From Candidatus Saccharimonadota bacterium (lineage in GTDB: Bacteria; Patescibacteriota; Saccharimonadia; Saccharimonadales; UBA4665): a DNA stretch of 32,000 bases. The notes below the pieces were generated by a model that was not told where the DNA came from, made no database searches, and was given only the letters and a program-made list of their open reading frames with translations. Location of the stretch: NCBI GenBank assembly GCA_963716945.1, contig OY970322.1:570001-602000 (forward strand), written 5' to 3'. Shown here one piece after another: positions 1-10,400 of the stretch. The position numbers and the translations under genes were made by a program. Numbering within the stretch: position 1 is the first letter of the stretch; each line of letters begins with the position of its first letter.

Positions 1-457
1 CGATTGATTCCAGCCGGACGCCTTCGCGCAGGTACTTGTCGGCGGCCACGTAAGCGATACCGGATTTCGTGCTGCCTTGCGCGTCCTTGCCGGCTTCGCG
101 CAAACTATCGAGGATAATGTGGTGCGGCAGAACCAGGTGGGCGGCATCGCTGATAAGCAGGTTTTTGGGCGACACGGACAAGCCGCCGCTGCGGATGGTA
201 GCCATCTCTTCGATGAGTTTCGGCGGGTCCAGGTAAACGCCGCTGCCGATGATGTTCAGCTTGCCGGGATAAGCTACGCCTGATGGTATCTGGTGCAAAG
301 CCAGCGGTTCGTCGCCGATTTTGGGTATGACGGTATGGCCGGCGTTGGCACCGCCGTTGGCACGGGCGATAATGGCATAATCACCCGCCACGAGATCGAC
401 GAAACGGCCTTTGCCCTCGTCGCCCCTCTGCAACCCAACAATCACATCTAAAGGCAT
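1..457 (-). CDS. purA: Adenylosuccinate synthetase, N-terminal ~152 codons (the rest runs off the left edge of the window)
   Basis: My own reverse-strand translation from the ATG at 457-455 gives MPLDVIVGLQRGDEGKGRFVDLVAGDYAIIARANGGANAGHTV... It carries the GDEGKG P-loop and the GG-x-NAGHT motif typical of PurA. It is absent from the ORF track because there is no stop codon inside the window. Confidence 0.85.
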   Translation of the reverse strand, partial: MPLDVIVGLQRGDEGKGRFVDLVAGDYAIIARANGGANAGHTVIPKIGDEPLALHQIPSGVAYPGKLNIIGSGVYLDPPKLIEEMATIRSGGLSVSPKNLLISDAAHLVLPHHIILDSLREAGKDAQGSTKSGIAYVAADKYLREGVRLESI

Positions 458-497
458 ACCTGATAGAGCATACCGTTCCAAGCTTGAATAATCAAGG

Positions 498-1472
498 TTA
501 GATCTGGTTTTGGCCTTCGAAAATAGCCGAAAGCGAGTTGCCGCTGGCCACGGCGTCGATGGCGTCGGCTACCAGCTGGGCTACCGACAGGACTTCGATT
601 TTGTCGGTGATACCTTTGCTGTCGACCGGCACGGTATTGGTAACGATTACCCTCTTGAACGCCGAAGCTTCGATGCGTTCCAAGGCTGTGCCGGATAGGA
701 TGCCGTGCGTAGCCAGGCCGTAAACTGATTTGGCGCCTTTGTCCTTAAGCATGTCGGCCGCCGCGCAGAACGTGCCGGCCGTGTCAATCATGTCGTCGAC
801 GATAATGCAGACCCGGCCGCGGACGTTGCCGATCAGCTGTTTGGCTTCGACGCTGTTGTGCTTGGTCGTGGAACGGGTTTTGTGGATGATGGCCATGTCG
901 GCGCCGAACGAGCTGCTGTAGCGCTCGGTCATCTTGACGCGGCCGGCGTCCGGTGACACGAAGACGATGTCGTTGCCGAAGTTGTCTTTGATGTACTTCT
1001 TGAATAACGGCATGGCGATCAAATGGTCGAACGGCCCGTCGAAGAAGCCCTGCGTCTGTCCGGAATGCAGGTCGACGCTCATGATGCGGTCGGCGCCGGC
1101 GGCCGATAACATGTCTACAAGTAAACGGGCCCCGATTGGTTCGCGGCCCGCTGATTTACGATCTTGCCTAGCATAGCTAAGCAAGGGGCACACGGCCGTA
1201 ATGCTGCGGGCGGACGCCCGCTTGGCGGCATCAATCATTAAAAGCTGCTCGAAAATCGATTCGTGGACCCGCGTACCATGGCTCTGAATAATAAAAACGT
1301 CATTGCCGCGCAATGACTCGTTGAAGCGAATGCTGACTTCGCCGTTAGCGAAGTTGCTCACCTTAATATTGCTTAATTTCATGCCCATGCAGGCGGCGAT
1401 TTCGGCGGCCAGTTCGGGATGGGCGCGACCACTAAGCAGCTGCAAGCGATGAGTGGTCCCGACACGATTCAT
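498..1472 (-). CDS. prs: Ribose-phosphate pyrophosphokinase (PRPP synthetase)
   Basis: 324-aa ORF with DLHSGQTQGFF, VSPDAGRVKMTERY and the PRPP-binding loop CIIVDDMIDTAGT. It lies 40 bp upstream of purA on the same strand. Confidence 0.93.
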   Translation of the reverse strand: MNRVGTTHRLQLLSGRAHPELAAEIAACMGMKLSNIKVSNFANGEVSIRFNESLRGNDVFIIQSHGTRVHESIFEQLLMIDAAKRASARSITAVCPLLSYARQDRKSAGREPIGARLLVDMLSAAGADRIMSVDLHSGQTQGFFDGPFDHLIAMPLFKKYIKDNFGNDIVFVSPDAGRVKMTERYSSSFGADMAIIHKTRSTTKHNSVEAKQLIGNVRGRVCIIVDDMIDTAGTFCAAADMLKDKGAKSVYGLATHGILSGTALERIEASAFKRVIVTNTVPVDSKGITDKIEVLSVAQLVADAIDAVASGNSLSAIFEGQNQI

Positions 1473-1628
1473 ATTTCCAGTGTAGCTAGCGTGTTCGTCC
1501 TGCGCAAGCCCGGATTATTAAAAACTTGACTTTACACCGATAAAAGCTTAAACTTTTGTGTAATTGAGATGATAATTTTGCAAAAATGATTCATTTCAGA
1601 GCATGTAAACTTAATTTTTGAGGCAAAT

Positions 1629-3266
1629 ATGGCACTAAAGAGCAAAAATGAGTATGTCAAAGTAGCTTCCCACGAGGGCCGTAAAGGCGAAGTCAAGAAG
1701 GTAGTTCTCCTCTATTCCGGCGGTTTGGACACTTCGACTATGGTCAAATGGATCCAGGAAGAATACAAAGCCGAAGTCATTGCCCTGACGATCGACATCG
1801 GCCAGCAGACCGACGACCTGGAAGCCATTCGCCAGAAGGCGCTCGACCTCGGTGCCGCCAAAGCCATAGTCATCGACGCCCGCGAAGAGTTCGCCGAAGA
1901 GTACATCGCCCGCGGCATTAAGGCCAACGGCATGTACCAGGGCCGCTACTACTTGTCGACGCCGCTCGGCCGGCCGCTGCTGGCTAAGTGGGCCGTCAAG
2001 ATTGCCGCCCAGGAAGGCGCCGACGCCATCGCCCACGGCGCCACCGGCAAAGGCAACGACCAGATCCGCATGGAGGGCTCTGCCTTGGCGCTTAACCCCG
2101 ATATCAAGATCATCGCCCCGGTCCGCGAATGGGGCATGGGCCGCGACGAACAGCTGGAGTATTGCCGCCAGCACGGCATTCCGGTCAAGCAAACCAAGGA
2201 CAAACCCTATTCTTATGACGACAACATGTGGGGCGTGACCGGCGAAGGCGGCGAGATCGAAAACCCGGCCCTGGTACCGCCGCTCGAAAAGATTCTCCAG
2301 GTTTGCAAGACTCCCGAAAAGGCCAAGAACACTCCGGAGTACATCAAGCTGGAATTCGAAAAGGGCCTGCCGGTAGCCGTCGACAAGAAGCAAATGGGTC
2401 TGGTCGAGATCATCGGCCAGCTCAACAAACGCGCCGCCCAGCATGCTATCGGTATCGTCCACTTGCTCGAAGACCGGGTTATCGGCCTCAAGGTCCGCGG
2501 CATTTACGAGGCCCCGGCCGCCGAAACCATCATCACTGCCCACAAGGCCTTGGAGCGCTACACCTCGACCCGGCTGGAGAACGAGTTTAAGAGCATTGTC
2601 GATGAGAAATGGGCTTACTTATGTTACGGCGCCCTGTGGTTCGAGCCGCTGATGGACGACCTCAACGCCTACGAGGACAAAGTTAATGAAAAGATAACAG
2701 GCACCGTTACCGTCAAGCTGTTCAAGGGCCATGTCGAAGCCGTCGCCGTCGAGACGCCTAACACCATATTCGACGAGAAGCTAGCGACTTTCATGGAAGA
2801 CGGCAGCCACTTCAATCAGAACGCCTCGGCCGGCTTCATCGAGCACTACACTTTGCAAATGAAACTGGCCCAGCGCCGCAAGCATACCGCCTTGCTGGCT
2901 ATCGGCGGCCGCGACAAGAAGCTTAAGCTGCTGCCGCAGCTTAAGTCCCTCAACAGTATGGGGTACCAGCTGTATGCGACCTACAAGACCCATAAGTTCC
3001 TCAAGAGCCACGGTATCGAAGCCATCCTGGTCAATAAGATCAGCTCGCCCGAACTGAAGCCCAACCTGGCCGACCTGCTCGATGCCAACCGTTTCGATAT
3101 CATCATCAATATCCCGACCGGCACCGACCGCGAAGAGAGCAAGGCCAAAGAAAAGACCGACGGCCAGACCATCCGCGAAAAGGCCGTTAAGGCCAACGTC
3201 ACCCTGATTACTACCGTTTCGGTCGCCAAAGAAGTCGTTTCCAAGCTCGAGAAGGCCCGGGTGTAG
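1629..3266 (+). CDS. argG: Argininosuccinate synthase-like enzyme (aa ~1-410) fused to a C-terminal MGS-like (CarB allosteric-domain-like) module (aa ~415-545)
   Basis: N-terminal PP-loop YSGGLDTS, GATGKGNDQIRME and YSYDDNMWG are ArgG hallmarks. The tail HTALLAIGGRDKK...GYQLYATYKTHKFLKSHGIEAILVNK...FDIIINIPTG...IREKAVKANVTLITT aligns by eye to the C-terminal allosteric (MGS-like) domain of carbamoyl-phosphate synthetase large subunit. GAGG lies 6 nt upstream of the ATG. Confidence 0.85.
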   Translation: MALKSKNEYVKVASHEGRKGEVKKVVLLYSGGLDTSTMVKWIQEEYKAEVIALTIDIGQQTDDLEAIRQKALDLGAAKAIVIDAREEFAEEYIARGIKANGMYQGRYYLSTPLGRPLLAKWAVKIAAQEGADAIAHGATGKGNDQIRMEGSALALNPDIKIIAPVREWGMGRDEQLEYCRQHGIPVKQTKDKPYSYDDNMWGVTGEGGEIENPALVPPLEKILQVCKTPEKAKNTPEYIKLEFEKGLPVAVDKKQMGLVEIIGQLNKRAAQHAIGIVHLLEDRVIGLKVRGIYEAPAAETIITAHKALERYTSTRLENEFKSIVDEKWAYLCYGALWFEPLMDDLNAYEDKVNEKITGTVTVKLFKGHVEAVAVETPNTIFDEKLATFMEDGSHFNQNASAGFIEHYTLQMKLAQRRKHTALLAIGGRDKKLKLLPQLKSLNSMGYQLYATYKTHKFLKSHGIEAILVNKISSPELKPNLADLLDANRFDIIINIPTGTDREESKAKEKTDGQTIREKAVKANVTLITTVSVAKEVVSKLEKARV

Positions 3267-3291
3267 GTGCTATGCCCGAGGTGGAGCCTAA

Positions 3292-4269
3292 ATGACAAAG
3301 CCGAGTTATTTTGACCCCAAGCAAGCCCTTTTAGAAAAAATACGGCAACGCGGCGGCTGGGTTAACGCCCACAGCCACATTGATCGGGCGTACATACTGA
3401 CTGAAGAGAATTTCCAGCTTTCCAACGCCTCGTTACAGCAGAAATGGGCTTTGCCCGACGAGTTCAAAGCCAAGGCCAGCGTTGACGACATTTACGGCAA
3501 TATGACCTTGGCTGTCGAAACCATGTGCGCCCAGGGCGTACGGGCCATGGCCTCGTTCATCGACGTTGATCCGGTTATCGAGGACAAGGCCATCAAAGCG
3601 GCGCGAAAAGTCCGTGATAACTTCAAGGGCCAAATCGAAATACGCTTCGTCAACCAGGTCGTCAAAGGCGTAATCGACCCCGAAGCCCGTAAATGGTTTG
3701 AAATCGGTGCCGAGTTCGCCGACATTATCGGCGGTCTGCCCGAAAAGGACGAAGGCCGCGAGGCCGAACACCTCGATATATTGTTTGAGACGGCTAAGAA
3801 GTATGGCGGCAAACCGCTGCATGTCCATGTCGACCAGTACGGTCTGCCTTCGCAGCGTGATACCGAGCTGCTGGCCAAAAAGACAATCGAGCACGGCTAC
3901 CAAGGCAAGGTCGCGGCCGTGCACGGCATTTCCATCGCTGCCCAGACTAAGGACTACCGCGAAAAGTTGTACAAGTTGATGAACGAAGCCGGACTGCTGG
4001 TCGTTACTTGTCCGCTGGCCTACATCGCCAGCCACCGCAGCGAAGAATTGGCGCCGCTGCATAACTCCATCGCGCCGGTTGAAGAAATGATCCAAGCCGG
4101 ATTGACGGTCGGCATGGGCACCGACAACATCCACGACATATATATGCCGTTCGCCGATGGCGACATGTGGTCGGAAATGCGGGTGCTGCTGGAGGCCTGC
4201 TATATCCGGGACCTCGATGTTTTGGCTGACATCGCGACCGTTAACGGCCTGAAAACCTTATTTTTGTAG
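3292..4269 (+). CDS. Metal-dependent amidohydrolase, cytosine-deaminase (CodA)-like family. Substrate unknown.
   Basis: HxH metal motif (VNAHSHIDRAY), HVHVDQ, and the C-terminal GMGTDNIHDIYMPFADGDMW, which resembles the CodA-type GxD(D/N)..D.W.P.G..D motif. At 325 aa it is shorter than E. coli CodA. RBS GGTGGAG lies upstream. Confidence 0.65.
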   Translation: MTKPSYFDPKQALLEKIRQRGGWVNAHSHIDRAYILTEENFQLSNASLQQKWALPDEFKAKASVDDIYGNMTLAVETMCAQGVRAMASFIDVDPVIEDKAIKAARKVRDNFKGQIEIRFVNQVVKGVIDPEARKWFEIGAEFADIIGGLPEKDEGREAEHLDILFETAKKYGGKPLHVHVDQYGLPSQRDTELLAKKTIEHGYQGKVAAVHGISIAAQTKDYREKLYKLMNEAGLLVVTCPLAYIASHRSEELAPLHNSIAPVEEMIQAGLTVGMGTDNIHDIYMPFADGDMWSEMRVLLEACYIRDLDVLADIATVNGLKTLFL

Positions 4270-4303
4270 CTACCTATTCCGGCGTCGGTGCTAGACTAAA
4301 ATT

Positions 4304-4885
4304 ATGAAATACAAGGTTGGCGTTTACGGTTCCGCGGCCGGGGATTACGAGGCCTTTTTACCGATTGCGGCGAAAGTCGGTCAGGCCCTCGCCGAACATG
4401 CCGATTCGGTAATCGTGATAACCGGAGCCTGTCCCGGCCTGCCGTACGCCGCGGCCAAGACGGCCGCCGCTCAAGGGGTTGAGGTATGGGGCTTTTCGTC
4501 ATCACCCAGTGAGGCCGTCCAACGCCAGGAATACGCCGCCGACGATCTGAGCATTTACGCCAAGCTGGTCTACGTGCCCCAAGACTTCCCGTTTGCGGAT
4601 AGTGACCAGGCCTGCAAAAAGTACCGCAACGTTATTTCGACGGCCAATTGCGACGCCGCTATCATCATGTCGGGGCGTTGGGGCAGTTTGAACGAATTCA
4701 CAGATCTTATTGATATGGGCAAAACTGTCGGCGTCTTGACCGGCAGCGGCGGCATCGCCGACGAGCTGCCCGCGCTAAGCCGGAAAATATCAAAAGCCGG
4801 CCAAGGCGAGTTATTGTTTGATGGTGATGCCGGCCGGCTGGTCGAAAAGCTGCTTAGCTCTTTGAAGCTTTCAGCGCCAACTTGA
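4304..4885 (+). CDS. LOG/TIGR00725-like Rossmann-fold protein (possible nucleotide N-glycosidase, SLOG superfamily)
   Basis: The 193-aa ORF has the pattern VGVYGSAAG...VITGACPGLPYAAAKTAAAQG..VWGF...IIMSGRWGSLNEF...TGSGGIADEL, which resembles LOG-family GGxG...PGGxGTxxE architecture in divergent form. The assignment is by pattern only. Confidence 0.45.
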   Translation: MKYKVGVYGSAAGDYEAFLPIAAKVGQALAEHADSVIVITGACPGLPYAAAKTAAAQGVEVWGFSSSPSEAVQRQEYAADDLSIYAKLVYVPQDFPFADSDQACKKYRNVISTANCDAAIIMSGRWGSLNEFTDLIDMGKTVGVLTGSGGIADELPALSRKISKAGQGELLFDGDAGRLVEKLLSSLKLSAPT

Positions 4886-5966
4886 TCTCGGCGGCCAGGT
4901 TGGGGTTGTACATGGCGCCGGTAGCTGACAAAACTACGTCGGCCCCGGCCTGGCGGTACTCCATGAAATCCCGGGCGTTGAGGACGCCGCCGATACTGAA
5001 AATTTCATAATGCAGCCTCTCCCGCTCACGGAGCTCGAACAGGCGCCGGGTCATATCCAGGCCGATCTCTTTTATGGCGTGGCCGGAGACGCCGGCCTTG
5101 AGCCTGCCCTTGCCGGGCAGGGCCTGCTGGCCGGCATCGTCTACTACCGGTGCCGCGTAAGTATTGATGGCGCTGATGGCCTCGACATAAGGGTCGACGG
5201 CGATGAACATCTCCTCGAACAGGCCTTGCACGGCTTGCGGGAAATAGCCGAATTTGGCGATGACGGGCGTTTCGCCGACGACCTCTTTGACCAGCTTGCA
5301 GACCTGAAGTACGGCCTCGGGGTCGTAGCATAAAACGCCTTCGTTGGAGACGTTCGGGCATGACAGGTTGATTTCGATTGCCCGGGCGCCGCTGCCCTTG
5401 GCCAGCAAAGCCGTTTTGGCGAAGTCTTCGTAATAGTCATCGGTCGTGAAGCCCGGCTGGATAGTGCCGACAATGCTGTTAATCAACAGCCGCCCCCGCT
5501 TCTCCAGACTATAGCTGTTAGCCTTGCGGCCATCCGGCATCCAGTAGCTGGGGTCGATCGAATTATTGCCGAAAGAATTGGCTATAGTCAGGGTGCTATA
5601 GTCGCTGTCAGACGTAGTCGTGCGGCTGGGCAAGGCTTCAAAATCGTGGTGCGGCAAAAGCTTGCCGGGCACGATGTGCACGACGTTGGCGAAGGGCTGG
5701 GGGGCGAAGTGCACGCTGCGCCGGGTTTTGGTGGTTACGATGTCGTAGCCGTTATCGAACATGGTCTTGATGTAGCGGCTGTCGGCGCCTGTCGGGCACG
5801 AGGCCGAACCGAAGGGCGAGTTGACTTTGAAACCGAGGGCCTGGTAATCGCCGGCTTTGGCGGGGGCCTTTAGGGTGGCTTTGAATTTTTTAGACGGGCC
5901 GGCTTCGAGATTGTCGTTATAAGTCTTGGATATGTCGTAAATTGGCTGATAAACCGTCTTTCCCAT
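4854..5966 (-). CDS. pyrD: Dihydroorotate dehydrogenase-like flavoenzyme (class 1-like, Cys active-site loop)
   Basis: EINLSCPNV active-site loop, NSPFGSAS, VTTKT, ANSFGNNS, SIGGV and LSATGA segments are collinear with class 1 DHODH. The start is set at internal ATG 5966 (MGKTVYQ...), because the track start at 6113 would overlap pyrF by 120-138 nt depending on its start. Confidence 0.7.
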   Translation of the reverse strand: MGKTVYQPIYDISKTYNDNLEAGPSKKFKATLKAPAKAGDYQALGFKVNSPFGSASCPTGADSRYIKTMFDNGYDIVTTKTRRSVHFAPQPFANVVHIVPGKLLPHHDFEALPSRTTTSDSDYSTLTIANSFGNNSIDPSYWMPDGRKANSYSLEKRGRLLINSIVGTIQPGFTTDDYYEDFAKTALLAKGSGARAIEINLSCPNVSNEGVLCYDPEAVLQVCKLVKEVVGETPVIAKFGYFPQAVQGLFEEMFIAVDPYVEAISAINTYAAPVVDDAGQQALPGKGRLKAGVSGHAIKEIGLDMTRRLFELRERERLHYEIFSIGGVLNARDFMEYRQAGADVVLSATGAMYNPNLAAEIKLALKASKS

Positions 5967-5993
5967 ATCTTTTATATGATAACATATAGACAG

Positions 5994-6809
5994 ATGACGT
6001 TTCTGCAGAAACTTGGGGCGGCCGTGGCCAAAAATGACTCTTTGCTGTGTGTCGGCCTTGACCCGGACTTGGCTAAACTGCCCGAAGGATTTAACCAGCT
6101 TAGCTTTAACCAAGCCATCATTGACGCTACTGCGGACCTGGTCTGCGCCTTCAAGCCCAACCCCGCCTTTTATGAAGCCTTAGGGGTTGAAGGTATAGGC
6201 TACTTGGAGGACACTTGTCGCTATATCAAGCAAAAGTACCCGGCTATACCGATAATTCTCGACGCCAAACGCGGCGATATCGGTAATACCAATCGGGCAT
6301 ACGCGCGGGCGGTATTTGACGTTCTGCAAGCCGACGCCGTGACGTTGCACCCTTACTTTGGTAAAGATTCGTTAATGCCCTTTCTGGAGTACAAGGACAA
6401 AGGCATGATCATCCTGTGCAAATCGACGAATTCGGGCAGCGGCGAGTTGCAGGATCTAACGGTCGAAGGCATGAAGCTATACGAATACGTGGCGCGTAAG
6501 GTAACGCAAGACTGGAATGAAAACGGCAACTGCCTGCTCATGGTGGGCGCCACCTACCCGGAGGAACTGGCAGCCGTTCGAAAGATAGCCGGATCCATGC
6601 CGATCCTGGTGCCGGGCATCGGCGCCCAGCAAGGCGACATGCAGGCTATGCTGGCCGCCGGTTTGACGCCTGACGGCACGGGCCTGATTATCAATTCGTC
6701 ACGGGACATTATATTTGCCGCCGGCGGTCCGGATTTTGCCGAGGCGGCCCGCCAAAAAGCTTCGGAATCACGCGATGCGATTAACAAGTACAGAGGAGGC
6801 ACGATATGA
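5994..6809 (+). CDS. pyrF: Orotidine 5'-phosphate decarboxylase (long/type 2 form)
   Basis: GLDPD..., LDAKRGDIGNT catalytic motif and PGIGAQQGD. The start is either ATG 5994 (MTFLQKLG) or ATG 5976. Its stop overlaps the pyrE start (ATGA at 6806-6809). Confidence 0.9.
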   Translation: MTFLQKLGAAVAKNDSLLCVGLDPDLAKLPEGFNQLSFNQAIIDATADLVCAFKPNPAFYEALGVEGIGYLEDTCRYIKQKYPAIPIILDAKRGDIGNTNRAYARAVFDVLQADAVTLHPYFGKDSLMPFLEYKDKGMIILCKSTNSGSGELQDLTVEGMKLYEYVARKVTQDWNENGNCLLMVGATYPEELAAVRKIAGSMPILVPGIGAQQGDMQAMLAAGLTPDGTGLIINSSRDIIFAAGGPDFAEAARQKASESRDAINKYRGGTI

Positions 6810-7414
6810 CTAACCGGGAGCAAAAGATCGAGCTGGCGCTTGATCTGCATGATATCGGAGCGCTTAAATTTGGCGAATTCACTTTCAAGAGCGGAATTGT
6901 CAGTCCCATATATGTGGACCTCCGACTATTCATTAGCTACCCGAAGATTCTGAAAAAAGTGGCCAAGCTCTATGCTGCCCAATTGGAATCAGTCAAGTAT
7001 GATCGCTTAGCCGGCGTAGCTTATGCCGCCTTGCCGATTGCCGGCGCCATCAGTCTGGAGCTTGAACGGCCTTGGATCTTCATGCGTAAGGAAGGCCTCA
7101 AAAAAGGCTATGGCTTGCAAAAAAGCCTTGAAGGTGAATATAAGCCGGGCGAAACGGTAGTAATGATCGAGGATTTGGTAACCCGGGCTACTTCCCTGCT
7201 CGAGGCTATACCGGCTATAGAGGAACACGGGCTGATTATCAAGGATGCCGTAGTCCTACTGGATTACGGCAAGGGCGGCGGCCAAGCGCTTGAGGCCAAA
7301 GGCTACAAATTGCACGCTTTCATGACCATGCGCGAAATGGTCGACATCATGCATGCCGAGGGCAAGATCGATGACGCCAAGCATAAGCAATCGATTGAAT
7401 TTTTAGCGGGCTAA
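6806..7414 (+). CDS. pyrE: Orotate phosphoribosyltransferase
   Basis: [19 protein letters not shown] and the PRPP-binding loop [13 protein letters not shown]. Translationally coupled to pyrF. Confidence 0.9.
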
Positions 7415-10400
7415 ACTTGGTCGACCCAGGCGCGGGCGTTATAGAAGATTTGCAGCCAGGGCGAGTCCGGACCCCAGTTGTCGGGATGCCAGGACAGTTG
7501 GCGGGTCATGAAGGCGCGTTCGGGGTGCGGCATCAGGATCGTGGCACGGCCGTCGGGCGTCGTCAGCGCGGTGATGCCTTGCGGGGAGCCGTTGGGGTTG
7601 GCCGGGTAGGTTTCGGTCGTTTGACCGCGGTTGTCGACGTATTGAGCAATGACTAGGCCGGCTTTTTGGGCTGATTGGAGATGCTGCTTATTAGCGAATT
7701 GGGCCCTGCCCTCGCCGTGGGCGACCGGAACGGGCAGGATCGATCCGGCCATGCCTTTGAAGAGGATTGACGGCGACTCGTTAATTCTCACGAGCGTGAC
7801 GCGGGCTTCATACTGCTCGGACGTGTTGCCCAGGAAAGCCGGCCAGGTTTCGGCGCCGGGAATCAATTCTTTGAGGGCCGCCAGCATTTGGCAGCCGTTG
7901 CAGACGCCGAGGCTGAAAGTGTCGGTCCGAGCAAAGAATTTACTAAAAATTGTGCGCAGCTTCGGGCTATAGAGGATGGATTTGGCCCAGCCCTCGCCCG
8001 CCCCGAGTACATCACCGTAGCTGAAACCGCCGCAAGCCGCCAGCCCGGCGAAGTCTTTCAAGTCGACCCGGCCGTCCAAAATGTCGTTCAAATGGACATC
8101 GACGCTGGTGAAACCGGCCCGGTCGAAGGCGGCGGCCATTTCGATTTGGCCGTTGACGCCCTGTTCGCGGAAGATAGCGACCTTGGGCTTGGTCTTGTAG
8201 GTCTTTGATTCCGGCTTGAAGCTGACTTTGGCTGACAGGCCCGGGTCTTTGTCGTCGCTGATGGCCTCGAATTCCTGGTCGGCGGCTTCCGGGTTGTCGC
8301 GCAGCTTCTGTAGCTGGTAGCTGGTCTGACCCCACCAGCTTTCAAGTTCGGCGCGGGTATTGCGGTATAGCTCAAAGCTCTCGCTGATGGTGATTTCCTG
8401 TTTGTGGGTCGGACGGCCGATGTTGGTGGCAATTGAAGCGCCAAATTGCTTGATGACGGCCAGGGCGTCTGATTCGGCTACTTGGATGACGGCGCCTAAC
8501 TCTTCATTAAATAGTTTCTCCAGGGGGTGGCCGCCAAGACCGCTAATGTTTAGTTCCAGGCCGCAGCGGCTGGCGAAAGCCATCTCCAGAACGGTCGTTA
8601 GCAGGCCGCCGTCAGAGCGGTCATGGTAGGCCAGAATTTTGTTTTGCCGCTTGAGCCGGTTGAGGGTTTTGAAAAACTGTTTGAGTACGGCCGGGTCGGC
8701 GTCCGGCGTTTGGCCGCCGGTTTGGTTGAAGACCTGGGCCAGGGCCGAGCCGCCGAGCCGCGGTTCCGGGCCGCCCAGGTTTACCAGTATCAGGCAGGTG
8801 TCGCCTGCTAAGTCCAGTTGCGGCGTTAAGGTCTTGCCGGTGTCTTGGACGGGGGCGAAACCGGTAATGATGAGCGATACCGGCGAGGTAACGTCGCGGT
8901 CCAGGCCCTTGTCCTGCCACTGGGTGCGCATGCTGAGCGAGTCTTTGCCGACGGGTATGGTTAAGCCGAGGGCCGGAGCGAAGTCTTCGCCGACGGCCTT
9001 GACGCTGTCGAACAGGCGCTCGTCTTCGTCGCCTTCGCCGGCGGCGGCCATCCAGTTGGCCGATAATTTGATATCTTGGAGCTTGCCGATGTCGGCAGCG
9101 GCGATATTAGTGATGGTCTCGCCAATGGCCATGCGGGCGGCGGCCGGAGCGTTGGTGACGGCCAGCGGCGTGCGTTCACCCATGGCCATGGCTTCGCCGG
9201 CATCACTGTCAAAACCGACTGCCGTAACGGCTGCGTCGCTGACCGGAACTTGCCAGGGACCGACCATTTGGTCGCGGGTAACCAGTCCGCCGACCGTGCG
9301 GTCGCCGATGGTGATAAGGAACTTTTTGCTGCCGACGGCCGGCAGCTGCAGGACGCGTTTAACGGCCTCTTCAAGCTCTAGGCCGGTGAAATCCAGTTTG
9401 CCCGTCTCCGTCTCCCGGCGGCTGACTTCGCGGGTCATTTTGGGCGGTTTGCCGAATAATACGCTCATTGGCAGGTCGACCGGCCGGTTGTCGAATAGGC
9501 TGTCTTCCAGGACCAGATGCCGGTCCTTGGTGATGGTTCCGGCAACCGCGAAGGGACACCGCTCGCGCTCGCAAATCTTAGTAAAACGCTCCAAGTCGCC
9601 AGGCGCGATACCGATTACGTAGCGCTCTTGGGCTTCGTTGCACCAAATCTCCAGCGGCGACAAACCAGGTTCGGCGCTTGGGATGTCGCGCAATTGGAAA
9701 ACGGCGCCGCGGTTGGAGTCATGCACCAGCTCCGGCAGGGCGTTGGACAAGCCCCCGGCACCGACATCATGGACCGTAATGACCGGATTCTTATCGCCGA
9801 GTGCCCAGCAGGTGTCGATTACTTCTTGGGCCCGGCGTTCAATCTCACCGTTGCCGCGTTGGACCGAGGCGAAATCCAGCGTCGCTTCCTGGCTGCCGAC
9901 ATTCTGGCTCGAAGCCGCCCCGCCGCCGAGTCCGATCAGCATGGCCGGTCCGCCCAGCACGATGACCAGCGAGCCGACCGGCAGCTGTTTCTTTTTGATG
10001 TGCTGCTCCCGGATATTCCCCAGGCCGCCAGCAATCATGATCGGTTTGTGGTAACCCCACACCCGGCCGCCGGCCTGTTGCTCGTAAGTGCGAAAATAGC
10101 CGGCAAGATTAGGCCGCCCGAACTCGTTGGCGAAGCCGGCGCCGCCAATCGGGGCTTCCAGCATGATATCAAGCGCCGAAACGATGCGGTCGGGTTTGCC
10201 GCAAGATTGTTCCCAGGGCTGTTTCAGGCCGGGTATCTCCAGGTTGGAGACGGTGAAACCGGCCAAACCCATTTTGGACTTGGCACCGCGCCCGGTCGCG
10301 GCTTCGTCGCGGATTTCGCCGCCGATACCGGTCGCCGCGCCGGGCACCGGCGCGATAGCCGTCGGGTGGTTATGGGTCTCAACCTTAATGACGCTGTGGA

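Follow-up and report, generated by a model that had tools for sequence, protein, structure and literature searches.

A fusion of argininosuccinate synthase with a CarB-type allosteric domain in Saccharimonadia and its possible part in pyrimidine synthesis

The Candidatus Saccharimonadota bacterium of GenBank assembly GCA_963716945.1 (here G000, a single contig of 1.10 Mb) encodes its argininosuccinate synthase, ArgG, as a fusion with a domain of the kind that ends CarB, the large subunit of carbamoyl-phosphate synthetase (CPS). The gene lies in the window, a stretch of 32,000 nucleotides at positions 570,001 to 602,000 of contig OY970322.1. The fusion and an adjoining amidohydrolase of the PRK06886 family form a conserved module in pyrD/pyrE/pyrF operons, whose carriers are without PyrB and a dihydroorotase and mostly without CarAB and ArgH. 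In most carriers, the fusion is probably not an arginine-pathway enzyme: 10 of 12 fusion genomes are without ArgH, and the fusion always travels with pyrimidine genes and, in 11 of 12 genomes, with PRK06886. Sequence comparison suggests, at just short of an even chance, that the fusion protein (ArgG-MGS) and the amidohydrolase replace aspartate transcarbamoylase (ATCase) and dihydroorotase, with the added domain acting as a nucleotide sensor.

The fusion protein and its two halves

The gene starts with an ATG that has a GAGG just ahead and contains an open frame of 545 codons. The initial annotation had described the product as a complete ArgG followed by the allosteric domain of CarB, which resembles methylglyoxal synthase (MGS). 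Every motif quoted there is found in the 545-residue translation, and the domain call is confirmed by Pfam, NCBIfam and fold. The gene and its parts are as follows.

1629..3266, plus strand: argG-MGS fusion gene (protein P0001), 545 amino acids, from the open reading frame and its translation, Pfam and NCBIfam
1698..2867, plus strand: ArgG catalytic core, residues 24-413, with the HUP domain at 24-185, the C-terminal domain at 194-413 and the PP-loop SGGLDTS
2886..3263, plus strand: CarB-type allosteric MGS-like domain, residues 420-545, from Pfam MGS, CarB models, CarB alignment and fold matches

The N-terminal half is matched by Pfam Arginosuc_synth (residues 24-185, E = 1.3e-66) and Arginosuc_syn_C (residues 194-413, E = 5.4e-65), and the tail is matched by Pfam MGS PF02142 (residues 434-528, E = 3.5e-15), with 56.3 bits where the gathering score is 24.1; Arginosuc_synth and MGS are the two families named in the initial annotation for a domain search. 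Two ArgG equivalogs of NCBIfam are passed as well, NF001770 with 505.1 bits (cut-off 334) and TIGR00032 with 459.9 bits (cut-off 268.2). The ArgG of Thermus thermophilus (1J1Z) aligns end to end with the ArgG half (E = 7e-104, 42% identity). The alignment shows equivalents of T116, N120, D121, R124, S173, E258 and Y270, which belong to a list that we take, from the T. thermophilus and human ArgG structures, to be the citrulline and aspartate ligands. The equivalent of Y84 is conserved too, as read in the 1629-3266 protein alone, and that of S182 is a threonine, as it is in the aligned fused and unfused relatives. The chemistry of this half should be the ordinary one, the formation of argininosuccinate from citrulline, aspartate and ATP. 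An AlphaFold model of the full protein, with a predicted local distance difference test (pLDDT) score of 83, gives target-normalized Foldseek TM-scores of 0.87 to 0.89 against 1KH1, 4XFJ and 7K5Z. The last ArgG helix of the model (residues 401-415) passes into the first MGS strand (residues 420-425) with nearly no linker.

The fusion shares the full-length match, the PP-loop and the ligands with the short-type ArgG/ASS1 enzymes (EC 6.3.4.5; 1J1Z/1KH1, Mycobacterium 4U7J and human 2NZ2). It differs from them by a 125-residue CarB-type domain on the C-terminal helix and by its genomic place, in pyrimidine operons and next to an amidohydrolase instead of argH; most carriers are without ArgH. It represents a new, uncharacterized variant of two well-known parts.

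The only further strong NCBIfam matches to the tail are two CarB models (the last 120 positions, CPS large subunit), and residues 415-543 align with positions 931-1049 of the 1,058 positions of the CarB model NF003671 (E = 1.4e-13). The PDB sequence matches of the tail are CPS1 and CarB. An AlphaFold model of the tail alone (pLDDT 92) finds CPS allosteric domains as its top PDB fold matches, namely, human CPS1 (2YVQ and 5DOU) and Escherichia coli CarB in complex with inosine monophosphate (IMP) (1CE8), the latter with a root-mean-square deviation of 1.9 Å over 120 columns and 27% identity. Foldseek ranks 1 to 17 are all CPS, and MgsA follows from rank 19, so that CPS stands ahead of methylglyoxal synthases and PurH. 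A true methylglyoxal synthase or a PurH-type cyclohydrolase was rejected as the identity of the tail, with no such NCBIfam match and with CPS first by both sequence and fold. The CPS allosteric domain (E. coli CarB residues ~937-1073, 1CE8; human CPS1, 2YVQ/5DOU) is thus the best profile and fold match of the tail but sits on an ATP-grasp synthetase, whereas the tail sits on ArgG. The positions of T1016 and T1017 of E. coli CarB are taken by isoleucine and proline. The tail is closer to CarB of another Patescibacterium (G619), with 42% identity between the two tails, than to the CarB of its own genome (29%).

The initial annotation had also put forward a nucleotide-responsive control of the enzyme, on which the retention of the effector pocket bears. 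A HMMER alignment with residues 940-1022 of E. coli CarB places T974, T977, K993 and N1015 of the pocket for uridine monophosphate (UMP) and IMP at T451, T454, K470 and N494 of the fusion, and K954 at K430, next to a second lysine, K431. The four equivalents and K431 are invariant in 29 ArgG-MGS proteins, and the two threonines, the lysine and the asparagine are also kept in nearly every other protein with this MGS subtype. The pocket for a phosphorylated ligand is therefore probably intact, and nucleotide-responsive control of ArgG-MGS is plausible because the phosphate and ribose ligands of CarB have invariant equivalents. The ornithine site of CarB requires residues of its carbamoyl-phosphate domain. 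Since ArgG does not contain these residues, the ornithine part of the CarB analogy probably does not carry over.

Distribution and genomic setting of the module

A search of 5.8 billion proteins returned at least 120 protein clusters with ArgG and MGS domains, at 74 to 95% identity and from independent sources. Almost all of them are 541 to 549 amino acids long, and the named ones belong to Candidatus Saccharimonadales or Saccharimonadia. Full-length fusions at 57 to 85% identity were found in 11 further genomes, which makes 12 fusion genomes with G000, and further copies are present in many species-representative contigs. An assembly artefact or gene-fusion error is ruled out by the many independent assemblies, and the survey of its spread that the initial annotation had called for shows the architecture in at least 120 clusters and in 12 genomes across Patescibacteria. 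That annotation knew of no characterized example, and none was found in print. Full-text literature searches returned nothing on an ArgG-MGS fusion or on an argininosuccinate route to pyrimidines, and the fusion goes unremarked in a 2026 preprint on Saccharimonadia that lists nucleotide modules and argG/argH. One split of the ArgG-core tree parts the fused from the unfused forms, in a tree without an outgroup whose direction of change is unreadable.

The genomic context was compared in two surveys, one of 251 Saccharimonadia genomes and one of 401 genomes across the phylum with the tail as the query. ArgG is present in 11 of the 251 Saccharimonadia genomes, fused in 5 and unfused in 6. All six unfused genes adjoin argH; none of the five fused genes does, and all five lie beside prs and/or pyrimidine genes or the amidohydrolase. 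The PRK06886 amidohydrolase occurs in exactly four genomes of the class, those with the 84 to 85% identical fusion, and was not found in the six genomes with unfused ArgG and ArgH. The phylum survey added seven ArgG-MGS genes from other families. An amidohydrolase with 40 to 55% identity adjoins the fusion in these genomes, one gene off in G377 and G473, which brings to 11 of the 12 the fusion genomes in which no more than one gene separates the two. The seven fusions often adjoin pyrD, pyrE or pyrF as well, and the operon orders seen include amidohydrolase-ArgG-MGS-pyrE-pyrF, ArgG-MGS-amidohydrolase-pyrD-like and amidohydrolase-ArgG-MGS-pyrD.

The fusion genomes keep the end of the pyrimidine pathway: 11 of the 12 have PyrF, and 9 have a gene of the PyrD family. 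PyrB is present in one genome only (G173), and both PyrB and a recognizable dihydroorotase are absent from the 11 fusion genomes that carry PRK06886. G104, G177, G124 and G330 contain no Amidohydro_1 protein besides the PRK06886 enzyme, and the extra amidohydrolases of the other fusion genomes are TRZ/ATZ-type enzymes, adenine deaminases or peptidase-like proteins, with no dihydroorotase among them. ArgH is present in two fusion genomes (G000 and G124) and was not found in the other 10; 6 of the 12 have no gene of the fumarate lyase family at all, and several are also without ornithine transcarbamoylase (OTC). CarB was not found in G104 and G177, among five genomes searched with a CarB model, and six of the seven fusion genomes of the phylum survey gave no MGS domain beyond that of the fusion when queried with the MGS tail.

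G000 itself shows the same gaps. No PyrB was found in this genome, whose single transcarbamoylase is OTC, with 385 bits in the OTC model compared to 155 bits in the ATCase model TIGR00670 (cut-off 237). No dihydroorotase was found either, the best TIGR00857 score being 22.7 bits; the genome has two Amidohydro_1 proteins, the PRK06886 enzyme and a peptidase-like protein. A tblastn search of the whole genome with P0001 found no second ArgG.

The amidohydrolase scores 452 bits (cut-off 340) in NF005365 (PRK06886), a model named "hypothetical protein." Its top PDB sequence matches are AtzC (2QT3, E = 4e-23), the N-isopropylammelide isopropylaminohydrolase, followed by CodA. The metal ligands H27, H29, H177, H179, H211 and D278 are invariant in 10 homologues. 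AtzC and CodA share the amidohydrolase barrel and the HxH, His and Asp metal ligands with the enzyme but contain an N-terminal β-sandwich, which is missing from the protein of only 325 residues. Dihydroorotase-type ring chemistry belongs to the same superfamily.

The PRK06886 family extends into a second phylum. An alignment of the amidohydrolase searched against 185,579 species genomes found 507 loci, with homologues at 55 to 60% identity in the Bacteroidota Saprospira grandis DSM 2844, Aureispira, Chitinophagales, Flavobacteriales and Weeksellaceae, the last including Empedobacter brevis, Moheibacter and Faecalibacter. PyrB is over the cut-off in 1 and full-length PyrF is present in all of 16 records from outside Patescibacteria, one or two of which (e.g., the L076 contig) may be mis-binned Patescibacteria. 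Among these records are S. grandis, E. brevis and Moheibacter; S. grandis and E. brevis have PyrF and no PyrB over the cut-off. Bacteroides thetaiotaomicron, from the control set, has PyrB. Free-living genomes of 2.4 to 7.8 Mb with the end of the pathway and no ATCase are hard to explain without a substitute.

A gene resembling the N-terminal arginine dihydrolase domain of ArgZ/AgrE (Synechocystis Sll1336, 6JV0; Anabaena Alr4995, 6LRF) follows argG-MGS in 5 of the 12 fusion genomes (G104, G177, G124, G173 and G270) and is absent from G000. These counts were obtained with a protein query, the arcA model being too insensitive for the gene, whose copy in G104 it missed. The product, of 267 amino acids, matches Sll1336 with an E value of 1e-51, differs from ArgZ/AgrE as a stand-alone domain, has the C-terminal Cys motif and keeps the motifs FATD and HLD, which are of the guanidino type (PMC9007349). 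Genomes with the gene tend to be without OTC, G124 being one that has both; the gene fits a supply of citrulline from arginine. Two tandem ArgZ-like genes flank the amidohydrolase beside ArgG-MGS in some contigs of Patescibacteria (L102 and L118).

The window gives the following features around the fusion.

498..1472, minus strand: prs (phosphoribosyl pyrophosphate [PRPP] synthetase), divergent from argG-MGS, named by sequence and conserved synteny
1526..1628, plus strand: predicted promoter-like site TTGACT-17-TAAACT (1526-1554), AT-rich leader and GAGG Shine-Dalgarno sequence, from the sequence and a consensus scan
3292..4269, plus strand: amidohydrolase, 325 amino acids, AtzC/CodA-like, NF005365 (PRK06886), NCBIfam 452 bits
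4304..4885, plus strand: SLOG cluster-4 (LOG-like) gene, Pfam PF18306, 64 bits, third gene of the operon
4854..6113, minus strand: dihydroorotate-dehydrogenase-like (PyrD-like) gene of divergent sequence, Pfam DHO_dh 65 bits at residues 221-414
5976-6809, plus strand: pyrF, NCBIfam pyrF_sub2 240 bits, over cut-off
6806-7414, plus strand: pyrE, NCBIfam pyrE 134 bits, over cut-off

The purine/pyrimidine setting noted in the initial annotation holds, with purA, prs, pyrD-like, pyrF, pyrE, purL, purM, purF, purN and purD around the fusion. The amidohydrolase gene begins 26 bp past the stop of argG-MGS, with no terminator-like site between them in a terminator scan, and the divergent pairing of prs with argG-MGS is conserved in relatives. 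A consensus scan for promoters and terminators found sites, including the type at 1526-1554, to be no more numerous than in shuffled sequence, and Rfam gave no match in positions 1-9000 of the window. The SLOG gene also follows the amidohydrolase in relatives (L053, L054, L064 and L086), and in G000 it shares 32 nucleotides with the convergent PyrD-like gene, at the 3' end of the latter. The PyrD-like protein has ~220 N-terminal residues outside the DHO_dh match and stays below the cut-offs of the NCBIfam PyrD models, and its homologues adjoin the module in relatives. A second PyrD-like gene of G000 lies at C1:187881-188591.

A separate arginine cluster of G000, at 208 to 220 kb, comprises argH, argF (OTC), carB, carA, argC, argJ, argD and argB. 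Because this cluster, including argH, is present, ArgG-MGS can serve arginine synthesis in this genome. The ArgH of G000 (C1:208615-209811) is short, with 398 amino acids, matches positions 14-386 of the 455-position argH model and scores 292 (cut-off 279.5). The same truncated match is shown by ArgH beside unfused ArgG in relatives and by ArgH beside the amidohydrolase in Saprospira.

ArgG-MGS is 84 to 85% identical between genomes of three Saccharimonadia families (G104, G177 and G124 compared with G000; L025-L027), and the module is confined to 4 to 5 of the 251 genomes surveyed in the class, a patchiness that suggests a horizontal spread of the cluster. Six short contigs with a Patescibacteria-type module (L053, L058, L071, L080, L103 and L076) are binned into metagenome-assembled genomes (MAGs) named Dormiibacterota (ArgG-MGS 96% identical), Chlamydiae, Pseudomonadales, Methylomirabilota, Sulfotelmatobacter and Gammaproteobacteria. 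These placements are probably binning errors rather than transfers.

The same MGS subtype on other enzymes

A phmmer search with the tail against 1.84 billion representatives returned 762 matches. The nearest MGS domains sit on ArgG, PyrB, a ligase resembling AsnRS/AsnA, amidohydrolases, dihydroorotate dehydrogenase (DHODH), GNAT and the CarB of Patescibacteria. PyrB-MGS fusions are found in three genomes of sister lineages (G268, G363 and G295), where they adjoin pyrF and their MGS domains are 37 to 46% identical; the ArgG tail has 42 to 46% identity with two other tails, that of PyrB in G268 and that of one CarB from Patescibacteria. The loci, L044:16880-18175 (G268), L045:15126-16325 on the minus strand (G363) and L052:2238-3527 (G295), encode proteins of 436 to 445 amino acids with ATCase scores of 362 to 377 bits, over the cut-off, and the MGS domain at the C terminus. 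We know of no description of this architecture.

At L035:9510-10967 (G377) and L046:8535-10013 (G392), the MGS domain is joined to a class II ligase core that resembles AsnRS/AsnA and has no anticodon domain. Ligase-MGS proteins include P0164, P0242, P0132 (1,134 amino acids) and P0147, of which P0132 and P0147 run on into DHODH and P0132 also contains a phosphoribosyltransferase-like domain. The genes lie beside ArgG-MGS, pyrD or the amidohydrolase, with two MGS fusions side by side in G377. The ligase-MGS proteins may represent another ATP-dependent step of a noncanonical pyrimidine route. Other fusions of the subtype (P0137, P0187, P0168 and P0127) show the architectures amidohydrolase-MGS, MGS-amidohydrolase, MGS-DHODH and GNAT-MGS. 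Half-size CarB-like open reading frames of ~525 to 540 amino acids in L047-L050 (G440, G454, G372 and G547) combine one ATP-grasp synthetase module, with which both CarB halves align, with an MGS-like domain.

The MGS-domain tree is poorly resolved, for which reason fusion events are not countable from it. The ArgG tails do not form one clade, and at least two changes are forced; this split could reflect domain swapping or noise.

A proposed argininosuccinate entry to the pyrimidine ring

Under the replacement proposed at the outset, ArgG-MGS would link the aspartate amino group to the ureido carbon of citrulline, adding this carbon and the ureido nitrogen to aspartate. In the argininosuccinate formed, the N1-C2-N3 unit of dihydroorotate and its entire aspartate skeleton would already be in place, leaving the closure of the ring onto the β-carboxylate and the exchange of the ornithine nitrogen at C2 for oxygen. 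Argininosuccinate cyclizes spontaneously to anhydrides. The amidohydrolase would then displace ornithine from argininosuccinate or from its six-membered cyclic anhydride, giving dihydroorotate or carbamoyl-aspartate together with ornithine. A reaction of this kind is known from AtzC, in which water takes the place of an N-alkylamine on a carbon of a ring. UMP would then be reached through the PyrD-like enzyme, PyrE and PyrF, and the net reaction would be citrulline + aspartate + ATP → dihydroorotate + ornithine + AMP + pyrophosphate. Citrulline would be supplied by OTC and CarAB in G000, with ornithine being recycled, and by the ArgZ-like arginine hydrolase or the host in relatives. The arginine pathway is complete in G000, ArgH included, so that argininosuccinate would there mark a branch point, used by ArgH for arginine and by the amidohydrolase for pyrimidines. 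The MGS domain would give the new ATP-spending committed step the UMP-type feedback that CarB has in the classical route. If ArgG took the committed position of PyrB, one would expect related MGS domains on PyrB in one set of lineages and on ArgG in another, and this is what is seen.

The canonical entry (CarAB, PyrB with or without PyrI, and PyrC; CAD in animals) resembles the module in its operon position ahead of pyrD/pyrE/pyrF, in an aspartate-ligating first step and in a CPS regulatory domain. In contrast to the canonical entry, which uses carbamoyl phosphate at the aspartate step, the proposed route needs none there and has citrulline as the carbamoyl donor, costs the conversion of ATP to AMP and pyrophosphate and releases ornithine; PyrB and PyrC were not found in 11 of the 12 carriers. 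The role of the enzyme is probably wider than arginine synthesis. It is possible, at somewhat less than an even chance, that argininosuccinate is the intermediate of a second entry to the pyrimidine ring via ArgG and PRK06886 in many Patescibacteria and in cultured, free-living Bacteroidota (Saprospira, Empedobacter, Moheibacter and Faecalibacter), which have pyrF and no pyrB. Citrulline has been named as a pyrimidine precursor for the PyrB-less Haemophilus influenzae, which is unable to make pyrimidines de novo, with no enzyme named (Sinha et al. 2013, PMC3739930). A PRK06886 search seeded from a "Gammaproteobacteria" MAG gave no Pasteurellaceae among its named matches, which are few and include Patescibacteria; the seed contig is probably mis-binned.

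Several observations weigh against the replacement of ATCase and dihydroorotase or against the sensor role. G173, the sole fusion genome without PRK06886, contains PyrB, a PyrC-like enzyme and CarAB beside the fusion, and because of this canonical set, the fusion is not strictly tied to the replacement. The ArgG of G173 (L028:9259-10908) also carries the substitutions S8G (in the PP-loop), T116S and S173V and sits on a long branch of the tree. PyrF without PyrB is common in the phylum, with 74 of 139 PyrF-positive genomes having neither PyrB nor the fusion, which makes the complementarity test weak. PyrB is present in 0 of 7 PyrF-positive genomes with the fusion compared to 58 of 132 others (Fisher p = 0.04), a weakly informative difference among related genomes; these tallies take in one unpublished genome, G397, on which no conclusion rests. 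One gammaproteobacterial MAG holds both PRK06886 and PyrB. As for the sensor, the residue aligned with K954 of CarB (K430) varies among the 29 fusions, although K431 is invariant, and the same fold binds N-acetylglutamate in human CPS1. The last of these points is the neighborhood of PRK06886 in Bacteroidota, which also fits arginine/citrulline catabolism or repair. The gene follows argH in Saprospiraceae and many Flavobacteriales (S. grandis DSM 2844, L087 6565-8969), and in the Weeksellaceae it lies with an arginine deiminase-like (ADI-like) gene and CtlX, described as a putative citrullinase (PMC9007349), both of which it precedes in E. brevis (L128 8001-10910).

Plain arginine biosynthesis is an unlikely alternative explanation. 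The fusion would then simply be the ArgG of the organism, tuned by the CarB domain to nucleotide or ornithine supply, and its position among pur and pyr genes would be without meaning for the pathway. This agrees with its being the only ArgG of a genome with argH, argF, carAB and argCJDB and with intact substrate ligands and an equivalog score well over the cut-off. It is opposed by the absence of ArgH from 10 of the 12 fusion genomes, by the 6 genomes without any fumarate lyase-family gene and the several without OTC, by the pairing of argH with unfused and not with fused ArgG in Saccharimonadia and by the failure to find the amidohydrolase in the six ArgG-ArgH genomes.

There is likewise little probability that the genes form a module for the salvage or catabolism of arginine and citrulline, in which the amidohydrolase would act on arginine, citrulline or damaged argininosuccinate, for instance, by reopening the cyclic anhydrides as a repair enzyme. 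ArgG-MGS would handle citrulline from the ArgZ-like enzyme, and the link to pyrimidines would be regulatory or due to a shared use of aspartate and PRPP. The ArgZ/AgrE-type hydrolase behind argG-MGS in 5 of 12 genomes, the row of genes in Empedobacter with the ADI-like gene and CtlX (PMC9007349) and the place of the amidohydrolase behind argH in Saprospiraceae and Flavobacteriales all speak for such a module, as does the spontaneous cyclization of argininosuccinate known from textbooks. However, with no ArgH or other lyase, the amidohydrolase is the sole consumer of argininosuccinate in most carriers, and a repair enzyme would be expected in ArgG-ArgH genomes too, where 0 of 6 have it. Salvage also leaves unexplained why PyrB and PyrC are missing while PyrD, PyrE and PyrF are kept, in two phyla.

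Whichever pathway holds, the MGS domain is improbable as a mere assembly handle that gathers successive pyrimidine enzymes by homo- or hetero-oligomer contacts: the subtype is fused to several such enzymes (PyrB, the AsnRS-like ligase, amidohydrolases and DHODH, with two fusions side by side in G377), the allosteric domains of E. coli CPS form one tetramer interface and the ArgG C-terminal helix (401-415) that bears the domain makes tetramer contacts in ArgG structures, both as textbook knowledge, but invariance across the fusions falls on those residues that bind phosphate and ribose in the nucleotide pocket of CarB, which argues for a bound phosphorylated ligand.

On a conservative reading, ArgG-MGS is still a form of ArgG that is widespread, uncharacterized and probably equipped with a ligand pocket. 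Textbooks give a six-step route to UMP, which is held to be near-universal; a conserved replacement of its second and third steps by ArgG-MGS and the amidohydrolase would, if true, be new central metabolism. It would explain the presence of an arginine-cycle enzyme in pyrimidine operons and would change how pyrimidine capacity is scored in annotation, where Patescibacteria and several Bacteroidota now look auxotrophic or gapped. It would also show in a clean case how a regulatory domain can follow the committed step from one enzyme to another.

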